From positions 1-64,000 of the IMG/VR virus record IMGVR_UViG_3300045744_000007: a stretch of 64,000 bases of DNA; one strand, given 5' to 3'. Below the pieces are notes generated by a model that was not told where the DNA came from, made no database searches, and was given only the letters and a program-made list of their open reading frames with translations. The stretch's first letter is position 1; each line of letters opens with the position of its first letter. Made by a program: the position numbers and the translations under genes. This DNA comes from a virus. Lineage: Duplodnaviria; Heunggongvirae; Uroviricota; Caudoviricetes. Below, one piece after another: positions 46,260-63,539 of this stretch.

Positions 46260-46261
46260 CG

Positions 46262-46362
46262 TGAGTGGTATGGCGGGGCTAGGTTAGGCACGGCCTGGTC
46301 GGGAGTGGCCCGGTATGGCTAGGTTAGGTCTGGCGTGGAGGGGCGCGGTATGGAACACCCCG
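46262..46362 (+). repeat. GG-periodic repeat tract ending GGTATGGAACAC
   Basis: same unit family. Confidence 0.5.
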
Positions 46363-46372
46363 GAGGTTGACG

Positions 46373-46600: not shown

Positions 46601-46721
46601 GCCTGGGAGATCGGACCTGGCTCGGGCATAGGCTGCGCACCGCTCACGAATGCGATCGGTCGGCTGACGTGCGCTGGCGAGCTAAGGCCGGGGAGGTTCG
46701 ACTCCTTCCCCCGCCACACAG

Positions 46722-46750
46722 TTGACAAGAGTGAACTAGCGAGCTAGTAT
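46722..46750 (+). promoter_or_regulatory. promoter TTGACA-agagtgaactagcgagc-TAGTAT driving leaderless gene
   Basis: family motif; ATG 7 nt downstream. Confidence 0.6.
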
Positions 46751-46757
46751 TTCACTC

Positions 46758-46979
46758 ATGGAAACCACGCCGAACCTGCTCCAGCAGGCCAAGGGACAGG
46801 CCGCGAAGGCTGTCTCCAAGCAAGTGTGTGTCGAGGGCGAGGACGTCTACTTCCTGGAGGACACCAAGGCCAGGAAGCCCGGACACATCTACTCCCGGGC
46901 CGGTCTTCGGGAGTACGGAACCAGTGGTTGTTGTGAGTACCACTTCGATCTGTTCTTCGGGGAACCCGAGGAAGAGTAA
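46758..46979 (+). CDS. hypothetical protein (leaderless)
   Basis: ATG 7 nt downstream of -10 TAGTAT. Confidence 0.5.
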   Translation: METTPNLLQQAKGQAAKAVSKQVCVEGEDVYFLEDTKARKPGHIYSRAGLREYGTSGCCEYHFDLFFGEPEEE

Positions 46980-46981
46980 GG

Positions 46982-47040
46982 CGGGGCTTGGCTAGGTCGG
47001 GTAGGCCAGGGTTGGGCATTGGAACGGCATGGCATGGAAG
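46982..47040 (+). repeat. GG-periodic repeat tract ending GGCATGGAAG
   Basis: same unit family. Confidence 0.5.
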
Positions 47041-47044
47041 TCAT

Positions 47045-47119
47045 CTCCTCGTAGCGCAGTACGGATAGCGCGTCCCCCTCCGGAGGGGAAGGTCGCAGGT
47101 TCAAATCCTGCCGAGGAGG
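47045..47119 (+). tRNA. tRNA-Arg (CCG)
   Basis: acceptor CTCCTCG/CGAGGAG; anticodon loop CTCCGGA; T-arm GCAGGTTCAAATCCTGC. Confidence 0.8.
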
Positions 47120-47121
47120 CT

Positions 47122-47200: not shown

Positions 47201-47270
47201 CGGTGCACTGTTCTAGATAATTACACCGCCCGGTGTAAAAGCATTGTGGATATCGGGAGGAGACACAGAA

Positions 47271-49012: not shown

Positions 49013-49077
49013 CCTACGGGCCTGCTCTTCGGAGTGGGCCCGTAGGCGTTTTGTCACTCAGACCCGTATGTACTCCT

Positions 49078-50013
49078 ATGGCCTTGCGACGAGTGGCGAT
49101 CAGGAACTTTCAGAGCTTGGTCGAGGCCGATCTGGAGCTGGGCCGCTTCACTGTCGTCGTAGGCCCGTCCAGTTCGGGGAAGAGCGCCTTCATCCGGGCA
49201 CTCCGGACGTTGGCGACGAATCCTCGGGGCTCTTCCTTCGTGACGCAGGGAGCCAAGAGCGCGTCGATCGGGGTCGACACGGAGGATGGTGAAGTCTCCT
49301 GGTCGAGGTCGGGGAACTCAGTCACCTACAGGGTGAACGACGAGGCGTACTCGAAGCTGAATGGTGACGTCCCGGAGTCCGTCCTCGGGATGCTGGGGAT
49401 CACGGACCCGGAGCTGCATATAGCGGGACAGTTCGATCGGCCCTACCTGCTCAGTGCGTCAGCGGGTGAGATCGCTCGGACGCTCGGGGCGCTGACGAAC
49501 GTCTCGACCATCCTCGAAGCGGCCCGAGAAGCCGCTCGGAGAGGACGAGAAGTCTCCGGCGTCCTCAGGACACGGCGACTGGACCTGGAGCGCCTCAAGG
49601 AGGAGCTGACCGAGTTCGTCGGCTTCAAGGAGAGGCTGGCGGCACAGGACGAGGCGGAGGCCGTGCTGGCGCGAGCCAAGGCCGTCCAAGCGAAGTTGGA
49701 CCGGCTGTCTCAGCTTCGGGGTGAGCTGGAGAGGGCAGAGACGGCACTGGCGGTAGCCAAGTCTCGGTTGTTCGACCTGCCGGATGCCACGAGGGCGCGG
49801 AGTCTCGTAGAGACTTACCAGCGGCTCTCAGGAATCAAGATCGATCTGAAGAGGCTCAGTGTAACTGCCGCCAAGGCCGGGGGCGAGGCGGAGCAGTTGA
49901 GTCTAGACATCAAGAACATCGAGCAAGAACGATTGGATCTCCTACACGAGCTGGGGACTTGTCCGGTCTGTGGGAGCGATACGAAGGAGCTGATGCATGA
50001 AGTACAGAGTTGA
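49078..50013 (+). CDS. SbcC/Rad50-like ATPase, N-terminal half (Walker A + coiled coil + CPVC zinc hook)
   Basis: VVVGPSSSGKSAF Walker A; long coiled coil; terminal CPVCGSD hook motif. Confidence 0.6.
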   Translation: MALRRVAIRNFQSLVEADLELGRFTVVVGPSSSGKSAFIRALRTLATNPRGSSFVTQGAKSASIGVDTEDGEVSWSRSGNSVTYRVNDEAYSKLNGDVPESVLGMLGITDPELHIAGQFDRPYLLSASAGEIARTLGALTNVSTILEAAREAARRGREVSGVLRTRRLDLERLKEELTEFVGFKERLAAQDEAEAVLARAKAVQAKLDRLSQLRGELERAETALAVAKSRLFDLPDATRARSLVETYQRLSGIKIDLKRLSVTAAKAGGEAEQLSLDIKNIEQERLDLLHELGTCPVCGSDTKELMHEVQS

Positions 50014-50724: not shown

Positions 50725-51744
50725 TTGAGTAGGTATCTCCTCGTTGGCGATATTCATCTGAGTGACCGGCCGCCCTCGGCGTGCACAGACACCTACCTGG
50801 ACGACCTCTTCGCCATCCTGGAGCACACGGTCCGGTTGGAGTCCGAGCTGGACGTGGCCGGGGTGATCTGGTCGGGAGACGTCTTCCACCACAAGCAGCC
50901 GTCCCGGACGTCGCACCGAACTGTGCAGCGCGCCATGGAGCTGGTGCAGGCGTACAAGCGGCTCTGGATCGTGCCGGGGAACCACGACATGCTCCACGAC
51001 CGGTTCGACTCTGTGGAGGCCACGCAGCCGCTCGGGGTCTTGCTCCGGGCCGGGGCCGAACTCCTGAACGGGTGGGAGAAGACGGGAGAGCACCCCATCT
51101 ATGGGGTTCCGTGGCTTCAGGAGTGGACCGAGGCGGCCGTCACCGAGGCGACCCGTGACTGGCACAAGAGACTCTTGGCTGAGGGTTGGCGGCAGATCAA
51201 GGAAGTTCCTGCGCCGTTCCTTCTTGTGTCGCACGCTCCGCTCTATCCCCCGTCGCTGGAGCTGCCTTACGAGTATTACCCGCTCCGAGACGAAGCGGAA
51301 GGAGACAACAAGTACGCCCGTCTCGGCTGGTCACGCCTGATGGGGAACCAGGGGTTCTGCTACTACGGTCACGTTCATGACGCGCATGGGACCTACGAGG
51401 TCGATGGCGTGATCTACTGCAACCAAGGCGCGATCACGCGAGGCTCTCTCGCAGAGTCGGACAAGAAGCGCGCCATCGCTGTGACGACCTGGAGTCCAGA
51501 GGAAGGCTTCGTTCGGGTCGACGTGCCGCATAAGCCTGCGGACGAGATCTATCGGGTCATGGAGATCCGAGCCAAGGAAGAGCAGCAGATTGCTCTCGAC
51601 TCCTTCCTGGACTCGATCGGCCAGACCCGGGTTGAGGTCACGTCGATCGAGGACGTGATCGAGCAGATCAGAGGCATGGGGCTGGGGGACGAGTTGGTCA
51701 CCCTGGTCACCGAACTGTTGGAGGAAGCTCGCGTTGGGCATTGA
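50725..51744 (+). CDS. sbcD: SbcD/Mre11-family nuclease (calcineurin-like phosphoesterase)
   Basis: TTG after GAAGGAGGAGAG; motifs GDIHL, GNHD, H..GH..D of metallophosphoesterases. Confidence 0.8.
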   Translation: MSRYLLVGDIHLSDRPPSACTDTYLDDLFAILEHTVRLESELDVAGVIWSGDVFHHKQPSRTSHRTVQRAMELVQAYKRLWIVPGNHDMLHDRFDSVEATQPLGVLLRAGAELLNGWEKTGEHPIYGVPWLQEWTEAAVTEATRDWHKRLLAEGWRQIKEVPAPFLLVSHAPLYPPSLELPYEYYPLRDEAEGDNKYARLGWSRLMGNQGFCYYGHVHDAHGTYEVDGVIYCNQGAITRGSLAESDKKRAIAVTTWSPEEGFVRVDVPHKPADEIYRVMEIRAKEEQQIALDSFLDSIGQTRVEVTSIEDVIEQIRGMGLGDELVTLVTELLEEARVGH

Positions 51745-52195: not shown

Positions 52196-53058
52196 CGTTC
52201 GACTCGAAGCTGTCCCTGAGCTGGTCAGGGCTCCGGGCGTTCGAGGAGTGCCACAACCGCTCCCGTCTCATCCGGGCAGGGAAGCGCGCGAAGCTGCAAG
52301 ATGTGCGGGGTTTCTTCCATGGCACGGTGGTCGACCGTGTGATGCGGGAGTGGCTGGAGGATCCAGACCTTCCCGCTGGCGCGATGAAGAAGCTCGTTCC
52401 AGAGATCTTGGAGCGCGAAGAGCAGGCAGCCAAGGACAACGGGGACGGGGTCGTGCGGTGGAAGTACGCCGACGACAAGGCTGAGGTGACGGCCTGGTGC
52501 ATCGAGCTGGTGACGCGCCTGGAGCCGATCCTGCACCAGTACGTGACGCCGTACGACTACGAACCGGCCAGGAGGTTCAAGACGCCGCTGACGATCCCGG
52601 GCTTGTATGGGAGCCCGGTGGTCGTGTGGTTGGTCGGGGAGACCGACCTGCTGGTCCGGCCGGACAAGTACGAGGTCTTCGACCTCAAGGGGACGGCCGA
52701 CGAGAACTACTGGCGCAAGACGTTGGGTCAGCTCGTGTTCTACGACCTCGATATCGAGGCCGAGTTCGGGGAGCCGTGCTCGCGGGTCGGGCTGATTCAG
52801 CCGATGTGCAAGGAGATGGTGAAGACCTGGACCGTCACCGAGCAGCAACGGCGGGAGATGGTTCAGCGGATCACCGCCTTCGCTCATGGGGTCTGGAAGA
52901 AGGACGCCACCTACGCGGAGGACCGGGAGGCGTGCAAGTTCTGCCCGACCAAGCACGCCTGTGACCGGTTCAAGCCGCGCTTCGTGACGCCGGAGCGCCG
53001 GTTGTCGATCGAGGCCATGAGAGCTGCCGTGCAGTCTCCGCCAGTGCCAGAGTCGTAG
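52192..53058 (+). CDS. PD-(D/E)XK nuclease with C-terminal Cys cluster (Cas4/RecB-like)
   Basis: GTG overlapping stop; ECHNRSR..., D..D..EVFDLKG motif pattern; CKFCP..C cluster. Confidence 0.6.
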   Translation: MTFDSKLSLSWSGLRAFEECHNRSRLIRAGKRAKLQDVRGFFHGTVVDRVMREWLEDPDLPAGAMKKLVPEILEREEQAAKDNGDGVVRWKYADDKAEVTAWCIELVTRLEPILHQYVTPYDYEPARRFKTPLTIPGLYGSPVVVWLVGETDLLVRPDKYEVFDLKGTADENYWRKTLGQLVFYDLDIEAEFGEPCSRVGLIQPMCKEMVKTWTVTEQQRREMVQRITAFAHGVWKKDATYAEDREACKFCPTKHACDRFKPRFVTPERRLSIEAMRAAVQSPPVPES

Positions 53059-53066: not shown

Positions 53067-53315
53067 GTGGGAGACGCACTGAGCCGGTTGACTGACCTAG
53101 AGAACCGGATTGAAGTCTTGCGCGCTGAGCAGGCGAAGGCGCGGGCTGTTCAAGAGGCAGCGCAGGCCCGTCGTGATGAGGTCTGGAATCAGCTCGGTAG
53201 CGAGTTCCAGATCCTTGACGAGGCCGCCCTGGAGGCGCGAGTCGTGTCGTTGGAGTCCGAGTTGAACGCTGAGCTGGACTCCGTCCAAGAAGCTTTGAGG
53301 AGGAGCATTGGCTGA
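53067..53315 (+). CDS. coiled-coil protein
   Basis: GTG; heptad-rich. Confidence 0.45.
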   Translation: MGDALSRLTDLENRIEVLRAEQAKARAVQEAAQARRDEVWNQLGSEFQILDEAALEARVVSLESELNAELDSVQEALRRSIG

Positions 53316-54528
53316 GGGATCGGTTCTGGACGGTCTGGCCCCGATCGAGGTGGAGGAGGTTGGCCCGAAGACGGAGGTCGATCCGGACGCCGGGGATGTG
53401 ATTCTCGAGTTCACGATCAAGCGCTTCCTGGCTGCTGGCCTCTTCAGCAAGGCTGCGTCGGTGGTGCCGAGCAAGGAACTGATGCCCGTTCTCAAGAACT
53501 TCTGGGTTGAGGCCGACGAGGATTCCCTGCGGGTGGTGGCGACCGACCTGGAGCTGAGCATCATCTCCTCGACGCAGATGGTCACGATCCTGAAGCCGGG
53601 CTCGGCCATCTTCCCGGCCGACAAGATCCGGGACATCGTTCGTGAGTGCGCCGATGACGAGATGCAGTTCACCGTGCGCTCCAGTGAGGGGAAGCCTTCG
53701 GCCACGATCCGGGTGGGGAAGGCGAGCTGGGTCCTGCGGTTGTCTCCCTCGGATGACTTCCCGGCACTGTCGGAGGTCGGGGACGTCGAGCTGGAGAAGG
53801 TCAACCGGTTGGACTTCCTGAACGCCCTGTTGGGAGTGCGGTACGCCGCTTCCCGGGACGCCAACCGGACCAACCTTCAGATGATTCAGATCAAGGACGA
53901 GAAGGTCACGGCCAGCGACGGGACGCGGATCCAGCAGGTGCGTCTCAAGGGCTTCACGAGGCACCTTCAGATCCCGATCGGGGCAGTGGACGACCTGGTG
54001 AAGCTCCTCCAGACCACGGAGCTGGAGACGATCGGGATCGGGGAGACCGACTCCTTCCTGGTGTTCGCGGTGGGGAACGACTTCTTCTTGGCGAACACGC
54101 TCTCCGACGACTTCCCGGAGAACATGGAGTCACTGATCCTCAAGAGCCTGATGAACAACACGCAGAAGCTCGTGGTCGACCACGAGGAGCTGTGGGACGC
54201 GGTGCGGCGGGTGAGGATCAACGCCGACCCGGAGACCAGTGCGGTCGTCTTGGACATCAAGCCGGGCTCGGTGACGGTCCGGAGTCGGGACAAGCTCGGG
54301 AACACCTCGACCGAGAAGATCAACGCAGGCTGGGATGGTCCGGAGCGTCGAGTCGCGGTGAACCACAAGTTCCTGGGTGAGCTGATCTCGATGTCGGACG
54401 CTAAGGCGTGTGAGTTCTACCTGTCTTCCGACCTGAAGGCCAAGAAGTCCTCGCTCATGATCAAGGACGAAGCGAGGGGTAGTTTCGGTTCGATCAATCA
54501 GATGCACCCTGACTTGGCCGGGATGTGA
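53308..54528 (+). CDS. dnaN: DNA polymerase III beta sliding clamp-like protein
   Basis: TTG after GAGGAGG; ~400 aa; N-terminal LEFTIKRFLAAGL...TDLELSII resembles DnaN domain I. Confidence 0.6.
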   Translation: MAEGSVLDGLAPIEVEEVGPKTEVDPDAGDVILEFTIKRFLAAGLFSKAASVVPSKELMPVLKNFWVEADEDSLRVVATDLELSIISSTQMVTILKPGSAIFPADKIRDIVRECADDEMQFTVRSSEGKPSATIRVGKASWVLRLSPSDDFPALSEVGDVELEKVNRLDFLNALLGVRYAASRDANRTNLQMIQIKDEKVTASDGTRIQQVRLKGFTRHLQIPIGAVDDLVKLLQTTELETIGIGETDSFLVFAVGNDFFLANTLSDDFPENMESLILKSLMNNTQKLVVDHEELWDAVRRVRINADPETSAVVLDIKPGSVTVRSRDKLGNTSTEKINAGWDGPERRVAVNHKFLGELISMSDAKACEFYLSSDLKAKKSSLMIKDEARGSFGSINQMHPDLAGM

Positions 54529-54531: not shown

Positions 54532-54840
54532 ATGAGCGAGTTCTGCCAGCACACGGATCGAACGGGGAAGCGATGCGTCCTGGGGAAGCATTCCAATTCC
54601 AACCACGAGATGCAGCCAGCTTCCTCGTCGTCGGTAAGGACGATCGTGAGGCAAGAGGAGTTGGAGCGACGCCTGACAGACTCTCCGGTGGAGAAGGTGG
54701 TGAAGGCCCTGGACGAGGTGACCGGGAATGCCCCTGCTCCGGACTCCTCTGCGTCGAGAACCGAGATGTGGGCGACGGAGAGACGGACCGGTGTGGAGAC
54801 TGTGGACGTGAGTGCCTCGGAGACTTCCACGAAGCCCTGA
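54532..54840 (+). CDS. hypothetical protein
   Basis: ATG 4 nt after stop. Confidence 0.5.
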   Translation: MSEFCQHTDRTGKRCVLGKHSNSNHEMQPASSSSVRTIVRQEELERRLTDSPVEKVVKALDEVTGNAPAPDSSASRTEMWATERRTGVETVDVSASETSTKP

Positions 54841-54850
54841 GAGAGACGCT

Positions 54851-55504
54851 GTGACCCTGGCTCGCCTCAAGGAGCTGGAGTCGGGGGTCAAGGACGCAAG
54901 GCGCGCACTGGACCAGTTGCAGGGCCGAGCCTCGGCACTGGGACAGGCTGGTAAGCGAGTGGAGTCCGAGATCTCCGACCTGGAGATGAAAGCAGTAAAC
55001 CTGGAGAAGGCGACGGCGCTTCTCACGAAGATCGGAGAAGACCGGCAGTCCGCCGCTCAGGAGCAGGTCGAGACGCTGGTGACCAGAGGATTGCAGACGA
55101 TCTTCGGTGAGGATCTGAGCTTTCATCTGGTCACCGCGCCGCGAGGCAAGACCGCCGGGACGGAATTCGTCGTCCGGACGACTCTTTCTGACGGCTCCAC
55201 GATCGACACTCCGGTGCTGGAGGCCAGAGGGGGTGGTCTCGCCGCAACGGTGGGCTTTCTACTTCGACTCGTGGTCATCCTTCTGAGCGAGTCGAAATCC
55301 TCCCTGTTGGTCCTGGACGAGACCTTCGCGATGGTCTCGGACGAGTATCTGGGGAGACTCTCGGAGTTCATCCGGGAGATCGTGGACAGCACTGGAGTGC
55401 AGATAGTCATGGTGACGCACCAGCCAGCGTTCACCGAGCACGGAGACGTGGTCTATCGATTCGGGCTCAAGGACGGTAAGACCGTCGTGAGCCGAGAAGG
55501 CTGA
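54851..55504 (+). CDS. SbcC/Rad50-like ATPase, C-terminal half (Walker B, D-loop, H-loop)
   Basis: GTG after GAGAGAG; coiled coil then LLVLDETFAMVSDE and VMVTHQ motifs. Confidence 0.6.
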   Translation: MTLARLKELESGVKDARRALDQLQGRASALGQAGKRVESEISDLEMKAVNLEKATALLTKIGEDRQSAAQEQVETLVTRGLQTIFGEDLSFHLVTAPRGKTAGTEFVVRTTLSDGSTIDTPVLEARGGGLAATVGFLLRLVVILLSESKSSLLVLDETFAMVSDEYLGRLSEFIREIVDSTGVQIVMVTHQPAFTEHGDVVYRFGLKDGKTVVSREG

Positions 55505-55558: not shown

Positions 55559-58500
55559 ATGGCGAATCGAACGCCGACCTTCATTGACGAGTTCGTCCGA
55601 GCGAACCAGCATCGCTTCGATATGCCGGTCCAGTACCTCGGGGACGAGCCGAACTCGTATCGGAAGGACTGGGATACCTCGACCGTCCGAGCCCTGCTCG
55701 CCGCCTCCTGGCCGTATCAGGCGGCAGCCGGGAACCAGTCGATCCCAGCGGTCTACAAGGCGATCAACATCGGTGAGAGCGTGAGGGGAGGTAGGCCGTT
55801 CCTGTGCGATCGGTACTACCTCCCCGCCACCCCTCGTGACCTCAAGACGTTCGAGCGCGAGGGCGTGCCGGTCTTCGGGATCGAGTCCAAGCACCAGATG
55901 CGGGACTTCGACGTGGTGATGACCTCGATCTCCTACCCGGTGCTGAGCCTGAGCTTCGTCAAGCTGCTCAAGATGAGCGACATGCCGGTTCGTCGGCGTG
56001 AGCGGGTGGTGCGTGAGGACTACCCGATGGTCATGGTCGGGGGACAGAGCTATGGGGCACCAGAAGTCCTGGCTCCGATCATCGACTGCTTCTGGCTGGG
56101 GGAGGTCGAGGAGGAGCCCGACAACCCTGGGATCGGGACGGTGTTCGCGAGGATCGAGCAGTTCAAGATGGAGGGCCGGTGGCAAACCGACCGGTTGGGA
56201 TGTTACCGAGATCTGGCTCGCGAATTCAATTTCCTGTATTTCCCTGAGTTCGTTGACGTCCAGTACGAATACGAGGACCGGTCGGCCTTCGGTGTCGGGG
56301 TGGAGATCGACTCCCGGGGCCAGAAAGGCATCGGCCTCAACGAGGACGGATCGGTTCGTCTGTCCAAGCAGGTCTACTCGTTCAAGTCGAACCTGACCGG
56401 GCTTCGGATGCCGTTCCTCAAGCGGATCGTGAAGGACTTCAACAAGGTCGAGCCGCTCACCAACCCGCCGCTTCTGTACTCCGACCCTGGGATGGGAGCC
56501 GGTGACCTGGAGGTGGCACGAGGCTGCCCGGCATGGTGCACCTTCTGTGCGCTGACCTACCGGACCAAGCCCTACCGGGAGCGGGATGTCGCCTTCATGG
56601 CGAAGTACGCGCAGGACTTCATCAAGAACATGGGGTCCACGCACCTGACGCCCTTCAGCCCGGACCTGCCGATGTACCCGCGTCGGAAGGAACTGATCAA
56701 GACGCTGCTGGAGCAGGCGTCCGACGAGGTCGACGCGGGCGCGATGCGAGTGGACGACTTCATTGCCGACTCGGACTTCATCACCTTGCAGGTCTATGGG
56801 GGGATGGACGGGGTCACGCTCGGGGTCGAGGGCAACTCCCAGCGGATGCGCGACCTGGTGGGCAAGGGGACGTCGGACAAGGACGTGGAGGAGGCCGTCG
56901 CTCGGGCCATCCATGCAGGGGTCAAGAAGATCAAGCTGTTCATGATCTCGAACCTGCCGGGTGAGAACGAGGGCGACGTGATGAGGGTGTTGCAGCTCGC
57001 TCGGAACCTGGCCGACATCAGGGACCAGTCGGGGCAGCCCAACGTCCGGATCCAGTTCTCCTGGACGCCTCTGATGATCGAGGCCAACACGCCGTTCCAG
57101 TGGTTCCCGGCCCCGTCGAGTACGCGTGCTCTGGGAGATGTGTGGGAGGAGTTCCGCGCTCTCAAGATCGCGTTCAAGCTCGGGGGCAAGAGTGAGAAGA
57201 ACAAGTCCACGTTCTTCCAGCTCTGCCAGCGGGCGTCGCGGGAGGTCGGTGAGGCCCTGGTCGACGCCATGATTGAGCTGGACACCGCGTGCTGGGGAGG
57301 GGTCCCCAAGACGAGCGAGAACAAGCTCGGGATGCACGACACGATCCTGCTCAAGCTGGCCGAGCATGGTTTCCTGAACGGCCTGGAGGACTGCTTCGAT
57401 GAGCGGACCAAGTCCGACATGTTCGGGTGGGAGTTCATCGATCAGGGGATCAGCCCGGAGCTTCTGTGGGTGACGTACCAGCAGATGTTGGAGTTCGTGG
57501 AGAACACCGACGCGCACACCTACGACGAGAACTTCGATGACTCGTATCACGGCAGTGAGTGGATCGCCCGGTGCGATACGCAGTGCATGGGGAAGACCTG
57601 TGGGGTGTGCGACCACAAGGACCTGAAGCTGCGCCGGGAGTACATCGTCGCGAGCCGGAACGACTACCAGGTGACGCCGTCCGATCTTCGACCGATCGAC
57701 CAGCGGTCGGAGGTCATGAGGATCCGGGCCAAGCTGGTGAAGTCCGACCGGTACCGGCAGATCATGAACGATCACTGGCGGTTCAATCTGCGGCGCGCAG
57801 CGAACCAGGCGTTCGACGCCCTGGGGTTCCCTGGCTTCCTTTCCAAGAGGTCGATCCGGTTCGTCTCCGACGACATCAAGTACCGGGACTGGACCAGTGG
57901 TGTGGACTACGTCGAGTTCGCGCTGACCAGAAAGATGTCTGTCCCTGAGGTGAAGGCTCTGCTGGACGAGATGAACGCTCGCCTGCTCGCCGTGCCGGGG
58001 GAGGAGGAGACCCGCTGGTTCAAGATCACGGACTGGCAGAGGTTCTCGGCTTCCGCCCCGAACATGAGGACGGACATCGACTACTCCCTCTGGGAGCTGG
58101 AGCTGAACGACGACCCGGGGAAGGTGTTGGGGAAGCTGGCGATCTGGGACGAAGCCGAGGAAGTGAGTATGACCCTCAAGCAGGAGGGTGGTTACTACTC
58201 GGCTGGTCCTGAGGTGGTCAACGCCAAGGAGTACGTCAAGGACATGTGGCTGGTGAAGGACGGCCATCGGCTGTTCCTTCGGATGCTTCTCAAGGGACGA
58301 CCGAGTCCCTACAACATCTATGCCGCACTGATGCAGAAAGCGTCGTGGTTGGAGGCTGCCGCCATCCCGGCGCGTCGGATCGATGCGTTCGTGGAGATGG
58401 ACGAGGACCAGTACGACTTCTTCCGGGTGGCGTGCGAATCGTGTGAGAAGGTCATCCCGGTCAACGTCCTGGACAAGCCGTACGACCTGAACTACTGCCC

Positions 58501-58561
58501 GGTGTGTAAGGACCGAGTCGAGGGAAAGACCCTCGCTCCCTTGGAGATGGCGAGTCGGTGA
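55559..58561 (+). CDS. radical SAM enzyme, large (1000 aa), B12-binding-type
   Basis: RBS GAGGGAGACATCG; CPAWCTFC CxxxCxxC cluster near residue 320; N-terminal region resembling B12-binding Rossmann. Confidence 0.7.
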   Translation: MANRTPTFIDEFVRANQHRFDMPVQYLGDEPNSYRKDWDTSTVRALLAASWPYQAAAGNQSIPAVYKAINIGESVRGGRPFLCDRYYLPATPRDLKTFEREGVPVFGIESKHQMRDFDVVMTSISYPVLSLSFVKLLKMSDMPVRRRERVVREDYPMVMVGGQSYGAPEVLAPIIDCFWLGEVEEEPDNPGIGTVFARIEQFKMEGRWQTDRLGCYRDLAREFNFLYFPEFVDVQYEYEDRSAFGVGVEIDSRGQKGIGLNEDGSVRLSKQVYSFKSNLTGLRMPFLKRIVKDFNKVEPLTNPPLLYSDPGMGAGDLEVARGCPAWCTFCALTYRTKPYRERDVAFMAKYAQDFIKNMGSTHLTPFSPDLPMYPRRKELIKTLLEQASDEVDAGAMRVDDFIADSDFITLQVYGGMDGVTLGVEGNSQRMRDLVGKGTSDKDVEEAVARAIHAGVKKIKLFMISNLPGENEGDVMRVLQLARNLADIRDQSGQPNVRIQFSWTPLMIEANTPFQWFPAPSSTRALGDVWEEFRALKIAFKLGGKSEKNKSTFFQLCQRASREVGEALVDAMIELDTACWGGVPKTSENKLGMHDTILLKLAEHGFLNGLEDCFDERTKSDMFGWEFIDQGISPELLWVTYQQMLEFVENTDAHTYDENFDDSYHGSEWIARCDTQCMGKTCGVCDHKDLKLRREYIVASRNDYQVTPSDLRPIDQRSEVMRIRAKLVKSDRYRQIMNDHWRFNLRRAANQAFDALGFPGFLSKRSIRFVSDDIKYRDWTSGVDYVEFALTRKMSVPEVKALLDEMNARLLAVPGEEETRWFKITDWQRFSASAPNMRTDIDYSLWELELNDDPGKVLGKLAIWDEAEEVSMTLKQEGGYYSAGPEVVNAKEYVKDMWLVKDGHRLFLRMLLKGRPSPYNIYAALMQKASWLEAAAIPARRIDAFVEMDEDQYDFFRVACESCEKVIPVNVLDKPYDLNYCPVCKDRVEGKTLAPLEMASR

Positions 58562-59247
58562 CGAGAAATCTGCGGGTGATCGTTCCAACGAGGGAACGAC
58601 CAAGGAATGCAGCTCGCCTGCTCAAGGCGTTCGAGAGCACGATCGGGGATGACACCAGGGTCATCTTCGCGGTGGACGAGGACGACCCCAAGCTGGGGGA
58701 CTACCTGCGGTTGGACGCGGAGGTCAGGGTTCGTCCGACCAAGACGATGGTCGACGCCTTGAACCGGACCGCCCTGGAGATTGCGGGTGTCTACTTCGCG
58801 CTCGGGTTTATGGGGGACGACCATCTCCCCCGTACGAAGAGCTGGGACGTGGCCTATCTGGACTACCTGGAGGAGGTGGGGGTCGGGATCGTCTATGGGA
58901 ACGACCTTCTTCAGGGCGATGCGTTGCCGACGCAGTGCGCGATGACGGCCAACATCGTGACCGTCCTGGGGCAGATGGCTCCGCCTCAGCTCTCGCATCT
59001 CTACGTGGATGACTACTGGCTCGCTCTCGGAACTCGCACCGGCTGTATCTGTTATATGCAGGGAGTCCAGATCGAGCACATGCATCCTGGAGCAGGAAAG
59101 GCAGTTCCTGATTCTGGTTACGCGAGAGTGAATGGCTTCGACGTGACCGATAAGGCGGCCTGGTCGCAGTACCAGGAAGAGGGTCGTCTGGACGCTGACG
59201 TGCTTCAGGTGAAGATGCTTCAGAAGTTCCGGGAGCCGGGCGAGTGA
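58558..59247 (+). CDS. GT-A fold glycosyltransferase
   Basis: VIVPTRERP N-terminus and AVDEDD DxD-like motif. Confidence 0.55.
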   Translation: MTRNLRVIVPTRERPRNAARLLKAFESTIGDDTRVIFAVDEDDPKLGDYLRLDAEVRVRPTKTMVDALNRTALEIAGVYFALGFMGDDHLPRTKSWDVAYLDYLEEVGVGIVYGNDLLQGDALPTQCAMTANIVTVLGQMAPPQLSHLYVDDYWLALGTRTGCICYMQGVQIEHMHPGAGKAVPDSGYARVNGFDVTDKAAWSQYQEEGRLDADVLQVKMLQKFREPGE

Positions 59248-60119
59248 GGCAGACTGCGCTCGTGACCGGATCGAGTGGGTTCCTCGGTCGGCACTTCTCT
59301 GACGAGCTTCGGAGTCGCGATTTCAACGTGGTCGAGTGCGACACGGCCGTGGGGGTCAACGCTCTCGACCTGTTCCGGCGAGACGTCGAGCCCAACCGCT
59401 ACGACCTGGTTGTCCACTGTGCCGCCGTCGAGCCGCATCGAGCCGCCATCGACTCTCTCCCGGACCACCTGGCCGCCAACCTCCAACTGGACTCGGCCAT
59501 GTTCCGGTGGGCGCTCAGGACGCGTCAGCGTCGGGTGCTCTACATCTCCAGCTCGGCCGTGTACCCGGTGCGCTACCAGCAGTGGGTGTCTCACGCCAAG
59601 CTCCGGGAAGAGCACACCGACGCTGACGAGGTGCCGTTCGATGACTACGGTTGGCTAAAGCTGACCGGGGAGCGGATGGCGAAGATGCTGAACGGGGCAG
59701 GAGTGCCCGTGCACGTCGTGAGGCCGTTCTCCGGCTATGGGGAGGACCAGAGCACCAACTTCCCGTTCGGTGCCTTCAGGGAGCGAGCCAAGGCCCGGCA
59801 GGACCCCTTCGAGATCTGGGGAGACGCGACTCAGGTACGGGACTGGATCCATGTCTCCGACGTGGTGAAGGGGGCTCTGGCAATCGTGGATGCCGACGAG
59901 AGGCGGCCGGTGAACCTCTGTACCGGCACCGGGACCAGCATGCTCGGCCTGTCGGATCTGTTCACCCGAGCGGCTGGGTACCAGCCTGAGGTCAAGGTGC
60001 TCAAGAACAAGCCGATGGGTGTCTCCTATCGAGTGGGAAACCCCTACCGGATGCTTCGGCACTATGTGCCGGAAGTGTCCATCGAGGCAGGGGTCGAGAG
60101 GGCGATGAGTAGTGCTTGA
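59244..60119 (+). CDS. NAD-dependent epimerase/dehydratase (SDR family)
   Basis: VTGSSGFLGRHF Rossmann motif; Y..K catalytic pattern. Confidence 0.75.
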   Translation: MRQTALVTGSSGFLGRHFSDELRSRDFNVVECDTAVGVNALDLFRRDVEPNRYDLVVHCAAVEPHRAAIDSLPDHLAANLQLDSAMFRWALRTRQRRVLYISSSAVYPVRYQQWVSHAKLREEHTDADEVPFDDYGWLKLTGERMAKMLNGAGVPVHVVRPFSGYGEDQSTNFPFGAFRERAKARQDPFEIWGDATQVRDWIHVSDVVKGALAIVDADERRPVNLCTGTGTSMLGLSDLFTRAAGYQPEVKVLKNKPMGVSYRVGNPYRMLRHYVPEVSIEAGVERAMSSA

Positions 60120-60441
60120 TCTCGACACGGTCGACGTGGCCGAACTCCGGGACTGTGAGGACCGGGAGTGTCTGGAGGAGAACGGTCCGAAGACGGCCGA
60201 ACCCGAGCAAGACGGAGACCACAAATACTGGGCCTGCACGGTCTGTGGGTTCGAGTTCGGGTGGGTGAAGATCGATAGTCAGCCCATCTCGGCCAGTGCC
60301 GAAGGACACTGCGCGGTGGGTGTCCCGGCTGAGCTGAGACGTGCAGCGAGTGGGGTTGCGGAGGGAGCCGCAGCGAAGCTGGAGAGAGGCTCCACCAAGG
60401 TTCCGCTGGGTCTCACGATCAAGAAGAGGCCCGGCCTCTAG
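60112..60441 (+). CDS. Cys-rich hypothetical protein
   Basis: GTG overlapping stop; CEDREC...CTVCG motifs. Confidence 0.5.
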   Translation: MLDLDTVDVAELRDCEDRECLEENGPKTAEPEQDGDHKYWACTVCGFEFGWVKIDSQPISASAEGHCAVGVPAELRRAASGVAEGAAAKLERGSTKVPLGLTIKKRPGL

Positions 60442-60460
60442 CTTCCGTGGAGGTTCGGCC

Positions 60461-61396
60461 TTGTCGTTCCTGGATTACCCCACACGCCTTCGGCCGTCTC
60501 CTCCGGCACAGCCCCATCTCAGACTGGTAGACCACCTTCAGACGCGCCGTCCGTTCGCTCAGACGGTCGACTATCTGACCGGGGTCACGTACCCGATGTA
60601 CGACAACGACAAGATCGGGGATTGTGGGCTCGCGGCACCAGGGCATCAGATTCAGTCCTGGAGCTTCTTCGGTAACGGGAACCTCTTCACCCCGGAGCCA
60701 GAAGCCATTATCGAGGCGTACAGCGCAGTAAGTGGTTATGACCCCAAGACGGGGGCGAACGACACTGGCGTTGTCTTGCAGGACGTCTTGTCGTACTGGA
60801 GGAAGACCGGGATCGGTGGCAACACCATCACCGTGTTCGCCTCTGTGGACGTGTCGCAGCCCGACGAGATCGACGCGGCGATCGAGGCGTTCGGGTCACT
60901 GTTGGTGGGAGTGAACCTCCCCAAGACGGCGGCGAAGCAGTTGGACGATGGGCAGCCCTGGGACTACGTGAGAGGGAGTGGTGACGGCGCACCTGGTTCC
61001 TGGGGTGGGCACGCGATCCACGTCGGGGCGTTCGATCGTGTCCATGGTGTGAGGGCGTGTACGACCTGGGGCGCGATCCAGCTCATGAGCGACTCGTTCT
61101 GGAAGCACTACGCCTTCGAGGCGTGGGTGGCCGTGAGCACGCTCTGGGTGGACACGAACAAGGACGGGATCGGGGCTATCGACCTTCGCTCGCTGGGTCA
61201 GGCGTTCGTTGACTTGGTGCCCGGAGCGAGCAACCCATTCCCGGACGTGCCGAACCCGGTAGTTGACATGAAGGCAAAGACAGAGGCGGACCTGCTGCCC
61301 GAGGCTCAGGCGTGGGTGGGCAGGAAGTGGCACACGACCTCGGCCAACAGGAGTCTTCGGGCCGTACTGGAGCCGTGGATCGGCGCGCGTATCTGA
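60461..61396 (+). CDS. putative Cys-His peptidase (NlpC/P60- or papain-like, tentative)
   Basis: TTG 7 nt after GGAGG; GDCGLAA...GGHAIHVG Cys/His pattern. Confidence 0.4.
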   Translation: MSFLDYPTRLRPSPPAQPHLRLVDHLQTRRPFAQTVDYLTGVTYPMYDNDKIGDCGLAAPGHQIQSWSFFGNGNLFTPEPEAIIEAYSAVSGYDPKTGANDTGVVLQDVLSYWRKTGIGGNTITVFASVDVSQPDEIDAAIEAFGSLLVGVNLPKTAAKQLDDGQPWDYVRGSGDGAPGSWGGHAIHVGAFDRVHGVRACTTWGAIQLMSDSFWKHYAFEAWVAVSTLWVDTNKDGIGAIDLRSLGQAFVDLVPGASNPFPDVPNPVVDMKAKTEADLLPEAQAWVGRKWHTTSANRSLRAVLEPWIGARI

Positions 61397-61412
61397 ATAG
61401 GGAGAGACAGCG

Positions 61413-61676
61413 ATGGCGGTGAGTCGGAAGTACGGGAAGGTCACCTTCGAGCGGGGGACGATCGAGGAGGCCGAGCCCGTCTTCGTGGTGAGGGCAAGAG
61501 ATCTGGCTGGTCCTTCGGTGGTCCGGCAGTACAAGTGGCTGTGCGAGGCGCTCAAGTCGCCCGACTCCCACCTGTACGACCTGGACGCACTCCGGACCGA
61601 GATGTGGGCGTGGCAGGCGAAGCACGCACGTAAGATCCCCGGCCTCCCTCTGGTGGGGGAGGGCGAGAGTGCCTGA
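61413..61676 (+). CDS. hypothetical protein
   Basis: RBS AGGGAGAGACAGCG. Confidence 0.55.
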   Translation: MAVSRKYGKVTFERGTIEEAEPVFVVRARDLAGPSVVRQYKWLCEALKSPDSHLYDLDALRTEMWAWQAKHARKIPGLPLVGEGESA

Positions 61677-62802
61677 GATGTTGGCGCTCAAGTACCGTCC
61701 CAAGACCTTCCGGGACGTGGTGGGGCAGAAGGTCACACGGGTCACGCTCGAAGCGATGGTGAGGAAGGAGCAGGTCCCGACCGGCCTGCTCTTCTCCGGT
61801 ATCCGGGGCGCTGGCAAGACGACGATGGGCCGGATCCTGGCCGCCGCCCTGAACTGTGAGCACGAGGACCCCGGAGTCCGTCCCTGCCTGGAGTGTGACG
61901 CCTGTGAGGCTGTCCACTCCGGTTCGTCCATGGCCGTGATCGAGCTGGACGCAGCCTCGAACGGGAACGTGGGGGCGATCCGGGACCTCACGCAGTCTCT
62001 GCGGTACAGCGTGAACGGGAAGACCCGGGTGGTGCTGCTGGACGAGGCGCACTCCATGTCGACGGAGGCGAACAACGCTCTGCTCAAGACGCTGGAGGAG
62101 CCTCCGCCGGACACGGTGTTCGTGCTGTTGACCACGGAGCCCGGCCGGATCCTGGGGACGGTGGTGTCCCGGCTCATGGAGTTCGACTTCGTGAGGATCG
62201 GGATTGATGACGTGGTCGGGCGACTGACCTACATCTGCCAGCAGGAGAAGTTCGACCTCGACCCTGAGCTGCTGGTCCTGATCGCAGAGCGGGCTCAGGG
62301 TGGACTCCGGAACGCGATCATGTCGCTGGACCAGATCAGCCGTGTCGGGATCACGACAGTGGAGGAGTACCGGGAGTTCGTCGGTGACCTCGACTTCGCG
62401 CCCGACCTGGCCCGAGCGATGATCTCCGGCTCGGTTTCGGAGTCTCTCGGGATCCTGGATCGGGTGCTGTCCCGGGTGGGCGACATCAGTGACGTCTCGG
62501 GGCAGATCATCCGGTGCTTCACGGACCTGATGCAGCTCAAGGAGGGTGGAGAGCTGTCCTGGCAGGGCGTTGCCCTGGAGTCGAGGAAGAGCCTCGTGGG
62601 GCGGGTCGAGGTGGAGAAGCTCTTCGCCACCCTTCAGGTCTTTTGGGCCTTCAAGACTCAGATCCGGGTGGGTGAGGACCAGCGGGCGGCTCTGGAGTTG
62701 GCTGTGGTGATGGGGATCAAGGCGCTGGGTGGGGTCACGTCGAAGCCTGCCGCTGTTGCTCCTCGGAGGATGTCCATCAGGGAGCTGGCAGCCGCTCAAT
62801 GA
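61669..62802 (+). CDS. clamp-loader ATPase, DNA pol III tau/gamma-like (DnaX family)
   Basis: LKYRPKTF..., Walker A GIRGAGKTT, zinc module CEHE..C..CDAC, Walker B LLDEAH, sensor motifs. Confidence 0.7.
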   Translation: MPEMLALKYRPKTFRDVVGQKVTRVTLEAMVRKEQVPTGLLFSGIRGAGKTTMGRILAAALNCEHEDPGVRPCLECDACEAVHSGSSMAVIELDAASNGNVGAIRDLTQSLRYSVNGKTRVVLLDEAHSMSTEANNALLKTLEEPPPDTVFVLLTTEPGRILGTVVSRLMEFDFVRIGIDDVVGRLTYICQQEKFDLDPELLVLIAERAQGGLRNAIMSLDQISRVGITTVEEYREFVGDLDFAPDLARAMISGSVSESLGILDRVLSRVGDISDVSGQIIRCFTDLMQLKEGGELSWQGVALESRKSLVGRVEVEKLFATLQVFWAFKTQIRVGEDQRAALELAVVMGIKALGGVTSKPAAVAPRRMSIRELAAAQ

Positions 62803-63539
62803 AGCTTGTGATTACGGCCTTTCAGCGGCCCGGCTACTTCGAGCGTGTCTTGAAGAGCTGGGCCGCTGCGAGAGGTCTACACCGCCTGTCGGGGATCGAG
62901 ATCGCCTTGGAGCCCTCGCATCACCTGAACGAGATGACCTATCTGGCGAACTCGATCATCCCCGAGGCCAACGTCCATCTGAACCCGACGCGGCTCGGTG
63001 TTCTGGAGAACCCGTATCAGGCGTTCCACCGTGCATTCCTTGGCGAACCGGACGACTCCTTCGTGATCCTGGGAGAGGACGACTGTGTCGTCTCCACAGA
63101 CGTGATCGAGTATTTCGAGTGGGCGTCGAGGCGATTCGCGGGGGACCCGTCCGTGCTGGGGGTGTGCGCGTTCTCCTGGAGTCAGCCGGTCCGTGCCGCT
63201 CGGTACGTGAAGCTGGAGTCCGGCTTCTGCCCGATCGTGTGGGGGACGTGGAAGAACCGGTGGGAGACGGTGCTCGGCCCCACCTGGGACCACGACTACT
63301 CGACAGGGAACCCTCCTGGCTTTCAGGCCGGGTGGGACTGGAACATCAACCTTCGGGTGATGGGGGATCGGAAGTTTGTCTGGCCGGTGCAGTCGAGGTC
63401 GAACCACATCGGTAAGTGGGGAGGGACGCACACGCAGCCGGACACCTTCCCCTCGTCCCAGGCTCCGAGCTTCAAGGAAGTTGTGCCGATTCAGGACTAT
63501 GCCGTGACGGAGGCTCAGAACTACAAAGTGACGCAGTAA
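62799..63539 (+). CDS. GT-A fold glycosyltransferase-like protein
   Basis: ATGA overlap; VILGEDDCVVSTD DxD-like region. Confidence 0.5.
   Translation: MKLVITAFQRPGYFERVLKSWAAARGLHRLSGIEIALEPSHHLNEMTYLANSIIPEANVHLNPTRLGVLENPYQAFHRAFLGEPDDSFVILGEDDCVVSTDVIEYFEWASRRFAGDPSVLGVCAFSWSQPVRAARYVKLESGFCPIVWGTWKNRWETVLGPTWDHDYSTGNPPGFQAGWDWNINLRVMGDRKFVWPVQSRSNHIGKWGGTHTQPDTFPSSQAPSFKEVVPIQDYAVTEAQNYKVTQ

Follow-up and report, generated by a model that had tools for sequence, protein, structure and literature searches.

Within the window (the whole stretch of 64,000 nucleotides that was analysed), a 1,000-residue radical SAM protein (rSAM), two glycosyltransferases (GT1 and GT2) and an epimerase-type enzyme (SDR) lie among replisome genes. 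Do these genes form one pathway? An earlier note had proposed that they do, for hypermodification of DNA or tRNA or for virion glycosylation. Upon re-reading of the open reading frames, all four genes were found on the plus strand where the note had placed them (Table 1), and the sugar genes are indeed interleaved with the clamp-loader gene tau, which lies between SDR and GT2. Direct reading of the junctions showed 4-bp overlaps at rSAM/GT1 (GTGA, 58558-58561), GT1/SDR (GTGA, 59244-59247) and tau/GT2 (ATGA, 62799-62802). GGAG-type ribosome-binding sites precede every start at the rSAM, GT1, SDR and GT2 junctions, with GAGGGAG 6 nt ahead of the rSAM ATG. Between 54 and 64 kb, no promoter-like sites were detected, and shuffled sequence had terminator-like sites at least as often as the real one. 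Together, these features make co-transcription and translational coupling plausible for the three overlapping pairs. The four genes are not a single conserved module.

Table 1. Features of the rSAM-GT2 interval (window coordinates)
Feature	Position	Strand	Length	Match or basis
rSAM, phage branch of the TIGR03960 + DUF2344 fusion family	55559-58561	+	1000 aa	PF19864 + PF04055
Rossmann/flavodoxin-like ("B12-binding-like") N-terminal domain of rSAM, residues ~1-230	55559-56250	+		PF19864, Foldseek
Radical SAM cluster motif, C323-P-A-W-C327-T-F-C330	56525-56548	+		Homologue alignment
Second Cys motif, C672-x3-C676-x4-C681-x2-C684, in linker before C-terminal domain	57572-57610	+		Invariant in phage family
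DUF2344-like domain, pseudouridine-synthase (TruA/Pus1/Pus10) fold, residues ~715-945	57701-58393	+
C-terminal zinc-ribbon-like motif, C959-x2-C962 ... C980-x2-C983	58433-58507	+		Kept in phage homologues
GT1, accessory glycosyltransferase, probably GT-A/GT2-like	58558-59247	+	229 aa	phrog_14945 "glycosyltransferase", E 9e-51
SDR, accessory extended-SDR nucleotide-sugar epimerase/reductase	59244-60119	+	291 aa	PF01370, E 2e-32
Small Cys-rich protein	60112-60441	+		Zinc-ribbon or rubredoxin-knuckle-like
phrog_19005 protein (function-less label)	60341-61396	+		phrog_19005, E 1.4e-22
tau, clamp-loader tau/gamma-like AAA+ subunit	61669-62802	+	377 aa	PF13177, E 6e-33; phrog_5846, E 1e-62
GT2, GT13-like GT-A glycosyltransferase	62799-63539	+	246 aa	23-homologue profile

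About 20 related loci were compared, from a lineage of metagenomic, high-GC phages of ~125 to 150 kb that are rich in tRNA genes. The position of rSAM was constant in the order SbcC-N, SbcD, beta clamp, SbcC-C, rSAM, small Cys-rich protein, tau; SbcC is split, and rSAM is kept between its C-terminal half and the clamp loader. The small Cys-rich protein is the lineage's conserved gene directly after rSAM, with tblastn matches in 19 of 22 loci, mostly immediately 3′ of rSAM, and conserved CxxC/Cx5C ... AEPEQDG..Y..CxxCG.xFG ... C.xG motifs. The phrog_19005 gene that follows probably starts 3′ of 60441; at this position, relatives carry a gene with a weak papain-like Peptidase_C1 match (L001 gene 13357-14091, PF00112). 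The conservation of rSAM exceeds that of the replisome genes: best-HSP identities across the related loci were 44 to 63% for rSAM, compared with 39 to 52% for tau and 30 to 45% for the beta clamp. Large insertions were present in 28 of the 120 best rSAM homologues, and canonical HN|C/S/T intein junctions occurred at at least six sites. Some inteins take C323 or C327 of the cluster motif as the +1 residue, and the P0073 homologue has a site at T680, in the second Cys motif. Inteins are typical of DNA-metabolism proteins. These comparisons indicate that rSAM, probably together with the small Cys-rich protein, is a core, strongly constrained gene of the lineage; because the loci were ascertained through rSAM, "core" here refers to presence in every sampled copy of this block.

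The sugar genes behave differently. GT1, SDR and GT2 or their counterparts are downstream of tau in 13 of 20 loci and absent from the other 7, and only in this window do GT1 and SDR abut rSAM. GT1 was found in 5 of ~22 loci, after tau, and SDR has a single weak homologue (26% identity), also after tau. GT2, which follows tau in ~12 of 20 loci, is the commonest member of a variable glycan island. The islands of relatives also hold SDR, sugar C-methyltransferase, FdtA-like cupin, GT17-like and GT2-like glycosyltransferase and FkbM methyltransferase genes, an enzyme set that implies multi-step oligosaccharide assembly. By gene content, GT1, SDR and GT2 are accessory and swappable. Homologues of GT1 were also identified in 71 records of isolated phages, mostly Streptomyces phages, that lack such an rSAM.

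Since the synteny of rSAM is constant while the sugar genes are absent or lie beyond tau, and since GT1 occurs in rSAM-less phages, we favor a reading in which an rSAM unit and a sugar-gene unit are functionally independent and adjacent in this genome only (probability roughly 0.55). The earlier proposal that rSAM, the epimerase and both glycosyltransferases jointly build a sugar-bearing hypermodified base on phage DNA is very improbable. The 4-bp overlaps tying rSAM, GT1 and SDR together and the setting among replisome genes do speak for it, but rSAM is retained without any glycosyltransferase in 7 of 20 loci and the adjacency itself is peculiar to this genome. DNA glycosyl-hypermodification requires a hydroxymethylase or a TET-type enzyme, and no hydroxymethylase, TET/JBP or DNA-kinase gene was found among the ~50 window ORFs scanned. 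What survives of the proposal is divided between the two units, with tRNA modification and virion glycosylation as the best guesses for the respective halves; the idea of a single shared pathway does not.

To consider the rSAM unit, the structure prediction called for in the earlier note was made with AF2 (pLDDT 83.8, pTM 0.85). The order of domains is a Rossmann domain, a radical-SAM barrel with the CX3CX2C motif, a helical region, a four-Cys site, a pseudouridine-synthase fold and a phage-only zinc ribbon. Residues 318 to 480 match PF04055 (E 2e-15), and C323, C327 and C330 did not vary in 30 phage homologues, which bears out the assignment as a CxxxCxxC radical SAM protein; cellular homologues keep the motif as CxRGCRFC. 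Residues 81 to 186 match PF19864 Radical_SAM_N2 (E 3e-21). In a Foldseek search, the N-terminal two-thirds matched MgmA, OxsB, AprD4 and MiaB/MtaB (E 3e-11 to 1e-5), all of which have a Rossmann-type N-domain ahead of the barrel. PF02310 (B12-binding) gave no match; the N-terminus, previously described as B12-like, is so at the level of fold and family name only. Sugar- or nucleotide-acting enzymes such as AprD4 and OxsB among these neighbors might be taken to favor the single sugar-bearing pathway, but the similarity is one of generic class-B architecture. MiaB and MtaB, also among the class-B-type enzymes that resemble this region, are tRNA methylthiotransferases. The remark that rSAM is unusually large for a phage was upheld: the best match in a 50,697-record collection of isolated phages was partial and at most 26% identical, and BFVD held no full-length structural analogue.

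The C-terminal third of rSAM bears on its substrate. The C672-C684 motif may be an auxiliary Fe-S or Zn site, and cellular fusions have a four-Cys motif at the equivalent position; the low pLDDT of the phage motif is expected because a metal site was modelled without its metal. The domain that follows has strong structural neighbors that are all RNA enzymes, and it contains many invariant Arg and Lys residues. Its likeness to pseudouridine synthases is one of fold only, as no sequence similarity to any of them was detected and the catalytic Asp motif was not evident in alignments, which leaves room for a ligand other than RNA.

The top NCBIfam match of rSAM was TIGR03960, at 184.6 bits (below the curated cutoff of 462). 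Aligned with cellular TIGR03960 + DUF2344 fusions, rSAM gave an hhalign probability of 100% (E 2.3e-62, 830 columns), and on this profile evidence it is a distant end-to-end homologue of that uncharacterized bacterial fusion. The bacterial gene is directly 5′ of RNase E/G in four of five cellular loci (from ~3 lineages; one lacks the linkage), and genes for L21, L27 and Obg follow in two. In the searchable literature, no substrate was found for any TIGR03960/DUF2344 family member. The window contains 33 tRNA genes and a Ro60/TROVE-like gene, 6.7 to 19 kb upstream of rSAM, and relatives of this phage have tRNA arrays too. In the phage itself, rSAM lies among genes for DNA replication and repair and not among RNA genes.

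Since the bacterial homologue is linked to RNase E/G and the C-terminal domain has a pseudouridine-synthase fold, rSAM points to RNA rather than sugar chemistry, and the best reading of sequence and model is that it would be an RNA-directed radical enzyme rather than a sugar enzyme. The occurrence of such homologues in ordinary bacterial genomes is a further argument against the one-pathway proposal. Alternatively, and with no part for the sugar genes, rSAM could have DNA as its substrate, in base modification or radical repair within a replication/repair module; for example, a T/U-directed enzyme might rely on the pseudouridine-synthase-like domain for flipping a pyrimidine out of the DNA. 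That rSAM is found in every locus between genes for SbcCD-like proteins, the beta clamp and the clamp loader fits such a role, as do a very high conservation and abundance of inteins typical of phage DNA-metabolism genes and the zinc ribbon added onto the family scaffold. We nevertheless consider it unlikely: the strong structural neighbors of the C-terminal domain act on RNA, the genes to which the cellular homologues are tied are those for RNase E/G, L21, L27 and Obg and not DNA genes, and phage gene order often mirrors expression timing rather than common function. RimO is a radical-SAM methylthiotransferase that acts on a ribosomal protein, and rSAM might likewise modify a protein or a small molecule such as a cofactor, with DUF2344 as a non-RNA-binding adaptor. 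L21, L27 and Obg would suit a ribosomal-protein or ribosome-assembly target equally, the lack of a detectable pseudouridine-synthase catalytic motif agrees with this, and class-B-like enzymes have many substrate classes (MgmA acts on a protein glutamine). A fold known essentially only from RNA-binding enzymes and the domain's basic invariant residues argue the other way, leaving this option with a rather low probability. For an RNA-directed rSAM, the pseudouridine-synthase-fold domain would dock a structured RNA (tRNA or rRNA) and offer a single nucleotide to the radical-SAM active site, where a 5′-deoxyadenosyl radical would initiate C-H functionalization, e.g., C-methylation if the N-domain binds cobalamin. 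Likely clients would be the 33 tRNAs that the phage encodes, RNAs of host translation, or both.

As for the second unit, the three sugar enzymes largely match what had been claimed. GT1 has no Pfam match and a marginal PDB profile match to the GT2-family enzyme PglI (E 0.019); it stands as a glycosyltransferase, and its GT-A fold is likely, the fold class depending mainly on the PHROG label. In SDR, the TGxxGxxG and YxxxK motifs are readable, and the best PDB matches were MoeE5/UDP-GlcA 4-epimerase, GDP-mannose 3,5-epimerase and GDP-fucose synthase. The single GT2 sequence matched nothing in Pfam or PHROG. A profile of 23 GT2 sequences matched POMGnT1 (E 4e-10) and GnT-I (E 1e-5), both of the GT13 family, and E93-D94-D95 forms a conserved motif in which E93 and D95 are invariant. 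By profile, GT2 resembles GT13 glycoprotein GlcNAc-transferases; its family of 38 proteins is confined to this phage lineage.

The most likely role of GT1, SDR and GT2 would be glycosylation of virion or envelope glycans. They would be a minimal form of the variable glycan-building island that is normally 3′ of the clamp-loader gene. SDR would modify a nucleotide-sugar supplied by the host, and both GT-A enzymes would attach sugars to a glycan, either protein-linked or in the envelope. It is well known that phages can encode glycosyltransferases which change the surface polysaccharides of the host, and a less likely alternative to a virion target is that the sugar genes remodel the host envelope, for receptor masking or superinfection exclusion, or glycosylate DNA. 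In line with this, the genes around them are replication genes of early/middle type and not structural ones, and a distant GT1-like protein in L011 has a sub-threshold match (E 0.021) to a TET-associated DNA glycosyltransferase family. GT1 itself has no such match, and the GT13- and GT17-like families and methyl-deoxysugar genes of relatives suggest oligosaccharide elongation and not single-sugar decoration of DNA. The present data do not separate envelope from virion targets. The structural genes of the phage lie outside the window.

Among known systems, the closest to rSAM is the bacterial fusion of TIGR03960 ("B12-binding radical SAM") and TIGR03936/DUF2344 ("radical SAM-linked"), e.g., in Geotalea uraniireducens Rf4. 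The two share PF19864, CX3CX2C, the four-Cys linker and the C-terminal domain at ~20% identity, but the phage protein is ~130 to 150 residues longer, has the extra C-terminal zinc ribbon, is often intein invaded and is encoded in a replisome block rather than beside RNase E/G. Where the bacterial DUF2344 has its signature, YSQGFHPHP ... VG.E..EY.D, the phage protein reads KRSIRFASD ... DWTxGxDYVEF. TruA, Pus1 and Pus10 are only 8 to 14% identical to the C-terminal domain, in which RTDxGVH, with the catalytic Asp, is unrecognizable; because the fold is here appended to a radical SAM enzyme, it is likelier to bind substrate than to act as an isomerase. MgmA and OxsB are cobalamin-dependent class B enzymes, AprD4 is B12-like but cobalamin free, and MiaB/MtaB are methylthiotransferases. 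These enzymes are 11 to 14% identical to rSAM, which lacks PF02310 and TRAM, has its cluster or metal site after rather than before the barrel and ends in a different C-terminal fold; MiaB/MtaB do share a C-terminal RNA-binding domain and an auxiliary cluster, both putative in rSAM.

For the sugar genes, Stanwilliamsviridae Streptomyces phages (Coruscant, Jay2Jay and Blueeyedbeauty) encode a glycosyltransferase 40 to 45% identical to GT1. Unlike here, its partners are a cytidylyl- or nucleotidyl-transferase and additional glycosyltransferases, and these phages carry no TIGR03960-type radical SAM gene. In mycobacteriophages Che8 and Rita, phage glycosyltransferases glycosylate the virion (Freeman et al. 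2023, as cited in PMC11256854). Those cassettes resemble the present one in having at least two glycosyltransferases in an actinophage-type genome, with sugar-tailoring enzymes added in relatives; here the putative cassette lies in the replication region beside the clamp loader and includes a lineage-restricted GT13-like family. By analogy with these mycobacteriophages, virion proteins would be the most likely glycan target.

The four genes that the earlier note had read as a single translationally coupled module for hypermodification or glycosylation, encoding a radical SAM protein (rSAM), two glycosyltransferases (GT1 and GT2) and an SDR, are real open reading frames (ORFs) bounded as it had placed them. 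Domain searches also agreed with it on the radical SAM, SDR and tau/gamma clamp-loader gene types. Start and stop codons overlap as GTGA at the rSAM/GT1 and GT1/SDR junctions and as ATGA at the tau/GT2 junction, and each of these three overlaps has a GGAG-type ribosome-binding site 5′ of the start. No promoter-like sites were found around the genes of the interval, and terminator-like sites there occurred no more often than after shuffling. The G+C content of the window is 62%, and almost every plausible gene lies on the plus strand.

Coordinates of features in the window and, in the last three lines, of sugar islands in related phage loci
Feature	Coordinates	Strand	Remarks
Band-7/SPFH protein	5342-6271
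DUF5052 protein	7489-8106		Extreme GC3, 0.98
FtsK/SpoIIIE-like ATPase	10375-12579		734 aa; phrog_24831
delta′-like clamp-loader subunit	16616-17425
Pol I-type (family A) DNA polymerase	21080-23608
RecA/UvsX-like recombinase	26713-28002
33-tRNA-gene array	36651-47120	+	ARAGORN
tRNA within the array	41116-41187		Rfam; missed by ARAGORN
NUDIX hydrolase gene	44729-45250		Inside the tRNA array
Ro60/TROVE-like RNA-binding protein gene	47244-48896		Directly 3′ of the tRNA array
SbcC/Rad50-like ATPase, N-terminal half	49051-50013		Ends in CPVCG zinc hook
SbcD/Mre11-like phosphoesterase	50725-51744
PD-(D/E)XK nuclease	about 52200-53058
Beta clamp	53308-54528		Bacterial type
SbcC, C-terminal half	54812-55504		phrog_77/phrog_15167
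rSAM, 1000 aa	55559-58561	+	ORF; PF19864 + PF04055, C323x3C327x2C330
GT1, 229 aa	58558-59247	+	ORF; PHROGs glycosyltransferase, E 9e-51
SDR, 291 aa	59244-60119	+	ORF; PF01370, extended-SDR nucleotide-sugar epimerase/reductase
Small Cys-rich protein	60112-60441
phrog_19005 protein	60341-61396
tau/gamma-type AAA+ clamp loader	61669-62802	+	PF13177
GT2, 246 aa	62799-63539	+	ORF; GT13 match by homologue profile only
Larger island downstream of tau, locus L011	15286-20629		SDR, sugar C-methyltransferase (PF08421/PF08484), FdtA-type (ketoisomerase-like) cupin, two GT13-like, GT2-like, GT17-like
Larger island downstream of tau, locus L010	6138-10797
Larger island downstream of tau, locus L017	15241-17272		Adds FkbM methyltransferase

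A database search returned 369 homologues of rSAM, of which the best 120 show 50-67% identity over their full length. All were on metagenomic or IMG/VR contigs, often 120-150 kb in length. The 8-kb interval had no megablast match among 50,697 phage records, and tblastn found no full-length rSAM in isolated phages, with partial matches at ≤26% identity. BFVD contains no full-length analogue; the radical SAM half alone found matches there. By the megablast result, the phage has no close relative among isolates. A scan of 185,579 species-representative genomes found rSAM neither in prophages nor in cellular DNA and so yields no host assignment.

Synteny was compared by tblastn across 22 related loci, 20 of which had enough flanking sequence. 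The gene order SbcC-N, SbcD, beta clamp, SbcC-C, rSAM, small Cys-rich protein and tau was kept throughout the loci compared, and best-HSP identity in the same loci was higher for rSAM (44-63%) than for tau (39-52%) or the beta clamp (30-45%). By its place and conservation in these loci, rSAM is a core gene of the lineage and not part of a sugar operon. The small Cys-rich protein is encoded immediately 3′ of rSAM in 19 of 22 loci; its motifs are CxxC/Cx5C ... AEPEQDG..Y..CxxCG.xFG ... C.xG(V/I). It had no family match and is possibly a partner of rSAM, of a zinc-ribbon or rubredoxin-like type. In about half of the loci a phrog_19005 protein lies between it and tau, and the gene at this position in the related phage locus L001 gave a weak papain-like (Peptidase_C1) match. 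The true start of the window's phrog_19005 gene is probably later than annotated, since the present annotation places its first 100 nt inside the gene before it.

The two halves of SbcC lie 4.8 kb apart and enclose SbcD, the PD-(D/E)XK nuclease and the beta clamp, a split kept in about 20 related loci. A family A polymerase together with a beta clamp of bacterial type and both a tau-like and a delta′-like clamp-loader subunit makes an unusual mix for a phage replisome. The tRNA array covers 19 amino acids, with no tRNA-Trp found by ARAGORN; Rfam confirmed 30 tRNAs, and its gathering scan of the window returned tRNAs only, with no Y RNA or riboswitch near the genes of the interval. A Ro60 gene likewise follows the tRNA array in Microbacterium phage Magritte (gene 118) and in L001. 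Because Magritte is the closest isolate by polymerase (36.5% identity) and has the Pol I, RecA, tRNA-array and Ro order in common with the window, the host is likely actinobacterial. The phage is not a simple relative of Magritte, in which the entire block of SbcCD, clamp, rSAM and tau is missing. Magritte too has a Band-7/SPFH protein, and most of the large ORFs in the first 32 kb of the window, other than those in the table, have no Pfam match.

The domain searches linked rSAM to a large bacterial family. The PF04055 check that the earlier note had proposed gave a match with an E value of 1.8e-15, and C323, C327 and C330 are invariant and align with the CX3CX2C motif of cellular homologues. 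PF19864 (Radical_SAM_N2) matched the N-terminal part of rSAM (E, 3.1e-21; 75.8 bits, with the cutoff at 29) and all 30 of 30 homologues. The top NCBIfam match was TIGR03960 (“B12-binding radical SAM protein”), whose equivalog cutoff of 462.3 bits is far higher than the 184.6 bits reached by rSAM; by this curated membership score, rSAM is a homologue of TIGR03960 and not an equivalog. Pfam gave no PF10105 (DUF2344) match in the window's rSAM and weak ones in 9 of the 30 homologues, the best at an E value of 6.5e-5. When a profile of rSAM was compared with a profile built from 16 bona fide bacterial TIGR03960 + DUF2344 fusions, the two aligned with a probability of 100% (E, 2.3e-62) over 830 columns, spanning rSAM residues 17-919 and running through the DUF2344 region. 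An exhaustive search showed the phage clade grading continuously into thousands of bacterial proteins, the family numbering 8,360 cluster representatives at E ≤ 1e-3 and 825 at E ≤ 1e-30.

In the alignment, phage and bacterial proteins have in common the CX3CX2C motif and, in the linker, a motif of four Cys residues. The phage proteins depart from the bacterial fusions in the signature of the DUF2344 core and in an added C-terminal CxxC...CxxC ribbon, and no RNase E/G gene lies near rSAM in the window or in the related phage loci. rSAM is homologous to the TIGR03960/DUF2344 family and works like its members; since the membership score and the genomic linkage fail and the C terminus is remodelled, it is best described as a divergent variant of that family. 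The literature searched contained no functional paper on TIGR03960, DUF2344 or “radical SAM-linked protein.”

Large insertions of about 300 to 650 residues each interrupt 28 of the 120 best rSAM homologues, and LAGLIDADG or intein Pfam domains were detected in 12 of these 28. The 28 have one or two insertions per protein, and P0159, at 2062 aa, has three; homologues with insertions include P0015, P0018, P0057, P0073, P0120 and P0159. Their junctions follow the canonical pattern of HN before C, S or T and fall at six or more distinct sites, corresponding to about residues 181, 314, 323, 327, 332, 545 and 680 of the window's rSAM, which itself has no intein. The insertions at C323 and C327 interrupt the first and second Cys of CxxxCxxC, and T680 lies inside the second Cys motif. 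Since intein homing targets the most highly constrained positions in important genes, this pattern independently marks both Cys motifs of rSAM as functional. That the divergent phage copy is more constrained than the phage's own sliding clamp and has been repeatedly invaded by inteins argues that the enzyme is important and portable.

An AlphaFold2 model of rSAM was confident (pLDDT, 83.8; pTM, 0.85). The N-terminal two-thirds of the model resembles enzymes that combine a Rossmann domain with a radical SAM barrel, namely MgmA, OxsB, AprD4 and the tRNA methylthiotransferases MiaB and MtaB. The earlier note had called the protein “B12-type” and its N terminus “B12-like,” descriptions that hold as labels of fold and family: PF02310 (B12 binding) matched neither the window's rSAM nor 30 homologues, and in the model the likeness to MgmA and OxsB is one of fold only. 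AprD4, which is also a top structural match, has the same N-terminal domain and does not use cobalamin. Anaerobic RNR activase, QueE, viperin-like proteins and spore-photoproduct lyase were rejected as identities for rSAM; they were absent from the sequence and top structural matches and differ in size and architecture.

The C-terminal domain of rSAM is predicted to adopt the TruA-type catalytic-domain fold of pseudouridine synthases (PUS). Here the fold search alone was informative: the C-terminal profile gave no meaningful match among PDB sequences, and none to any PUS, and a catalytic-Asp motif of the RTDxGVH type was not recognisable in the rSAM alignments. On the bacterial side, the TIGR03960/DUF2344 gene lies immediately upstream of RNase E/G in four of five loci examined (L026, L027, L030 and L032). 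In two of those loci the genes that come next encode L21, L27 and Obg, and in two others PBP2 and RodA precede the TIGR03960/DUF2344 gene.

The best-supported mechanism is that rSAM would carry out a radical SAM modification of a structured RNA, with both the chemistry, methylation or another reaction, and the site being inferred. Four observations suggest such a substrate: the C-terminal domain has a PUS fold, the protein as a whole is laid out like MiaB, the bacterial homologues lie in a neighborhood of RNA processing and ribosomal genes, and this phage has 33 tRNAs and a Ro60 gene. The PUS fold points to RNA as a concrete substrate hypothesis that can be tested. DNA is alive as a rival substrate, consistent with the position of the rSAM gene in a block for replication and repair and with the intein load of its family. 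On either substrate, rSAM might be the founding example, and one open to experiment, of a new nucleic-acid-modifying class, in which a radical SAM core joined to a substrate-presenting PUS-fold module would write an undescribed modification in RNA (tRNA or rRNA) or on a DNA pyrimidine, a tentative reading to which we give a probability of about 0.3. If it is true, a whole lineage of large, tRNA-rich phages would depend on the modification, and solving rSAM would also give a function to the widespread bacterial gene beside RNase E/G. The TIGR03960/DUF2344 family is very large, and its members are often flanked by cell-shape genes on one side and by RNase G, L21, L27 and obg on the other. For this orphan family, the rSAM-PUS-fold enzyme, an intein-ridden core gene of its phage lineage, offers a handle.

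The sugar genes have a different history. Among the related loci, GT1 homologues occur in 5, an SDR in 1 (26% identity) and GT2 in about 12, all downstream of tau, and 7 of the 20 loci with enough flank have no glycosyltransferase. Only in the window, among the loci compared, are GT1 and the SDR wedged between rSAM and the small Cys-rich protein gene. Homologues of GT1 at 40-45% identity were present in 71 phage records (63 Streptomyces, 4 Arthrobacter, 2 Actinoplanes and 2 Pelagibacter), none of which (0 of 71) carries rSAM; in the Streptomyces phages inspected, GT1 adjoins a nucleotidyltransferase. Since synteny and the occurrence of GT1 apart from rSAM indicate that rSAM and the sugar genes are evolutionarily independent, the earlier interpretation is upheld in part only: its gene types and coordinates are right, and its single module is not. 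The annotation is corrected accordingly, and the sugar-gene neighbors should not serve to infer the function of rSAM.

Both transferases had also been labeled GT-A. This is borne out for GT2: a profile of 23 homologues matched GT13 enzymes (POMGnT1 5ggf, E 4e-10; GnT-I 1fo8/2am3, E 1e-5), and E93-D94-D95 forms a conserved acidic DxD-type motif. A single-sequence search with GT2 found no match, and Pfam GNT-I (PF03071) scored 14.9 bits, under its gathering cutoff of 25.4. By profile, then, GT2 is GT13-like, in a family of 38 proteins restricted to this phage lineage. For GT1 the GT-A label is one of fold and family; its profile gave only a marginal PDB match, to PglI (E, 0.019), and showed no significant relation to the GT2 profile (probability, 29%). 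The SDR is closest to UDP-GlcA 4-epimerases (MoeE5), GDP-mannose 3,5-epimerase and GDP-fucose synthase. Three relatives carry larger islands downstream of tau, in which one GT2-like protein gave a sub-threshold match to the TET-associated glycosyltransferase (PF20691; E, 0.021). From their predicted gene content, these islands resemble an assembly line for oligosaccharides with tailored deoxysugars and not a single-sugar DNA decoration.

Glycosylation of the virion is the preferred, putative role of the sugar genes. The structural genes of the phage lie outside the window. Remodelling of the host envelope by the same enzymes is a rival explanation that fits the same data. The sugar genes are better treated as new members of familiar kinds, forming a separate and variable glycosylation island. 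Phage DNA hypermodification systems (glucosyl-hmC or thymidine) pair a base-activating enzyme with their transferases; in contrast, none was found in the window, beyond which the contig extends for roughly 33 kb and in which Pfam or PHROGs scans of about 50 ORFs detected no dNMP hydroxymethylase, TET/JBP or 5-hmdU DNA kinase. In mycobacteriophages Che8 and Rita, phage-encoded glycosyltransferases glycosylate capsid proteins (Freeman et al. 2023, as cited in PMC11256854). In gene content, the window resembles such an actinophage virion-glycosylation cassette, with at least two glycosyltransferases, GT1 and GT2, and the SDR as a tailoring enzyme.
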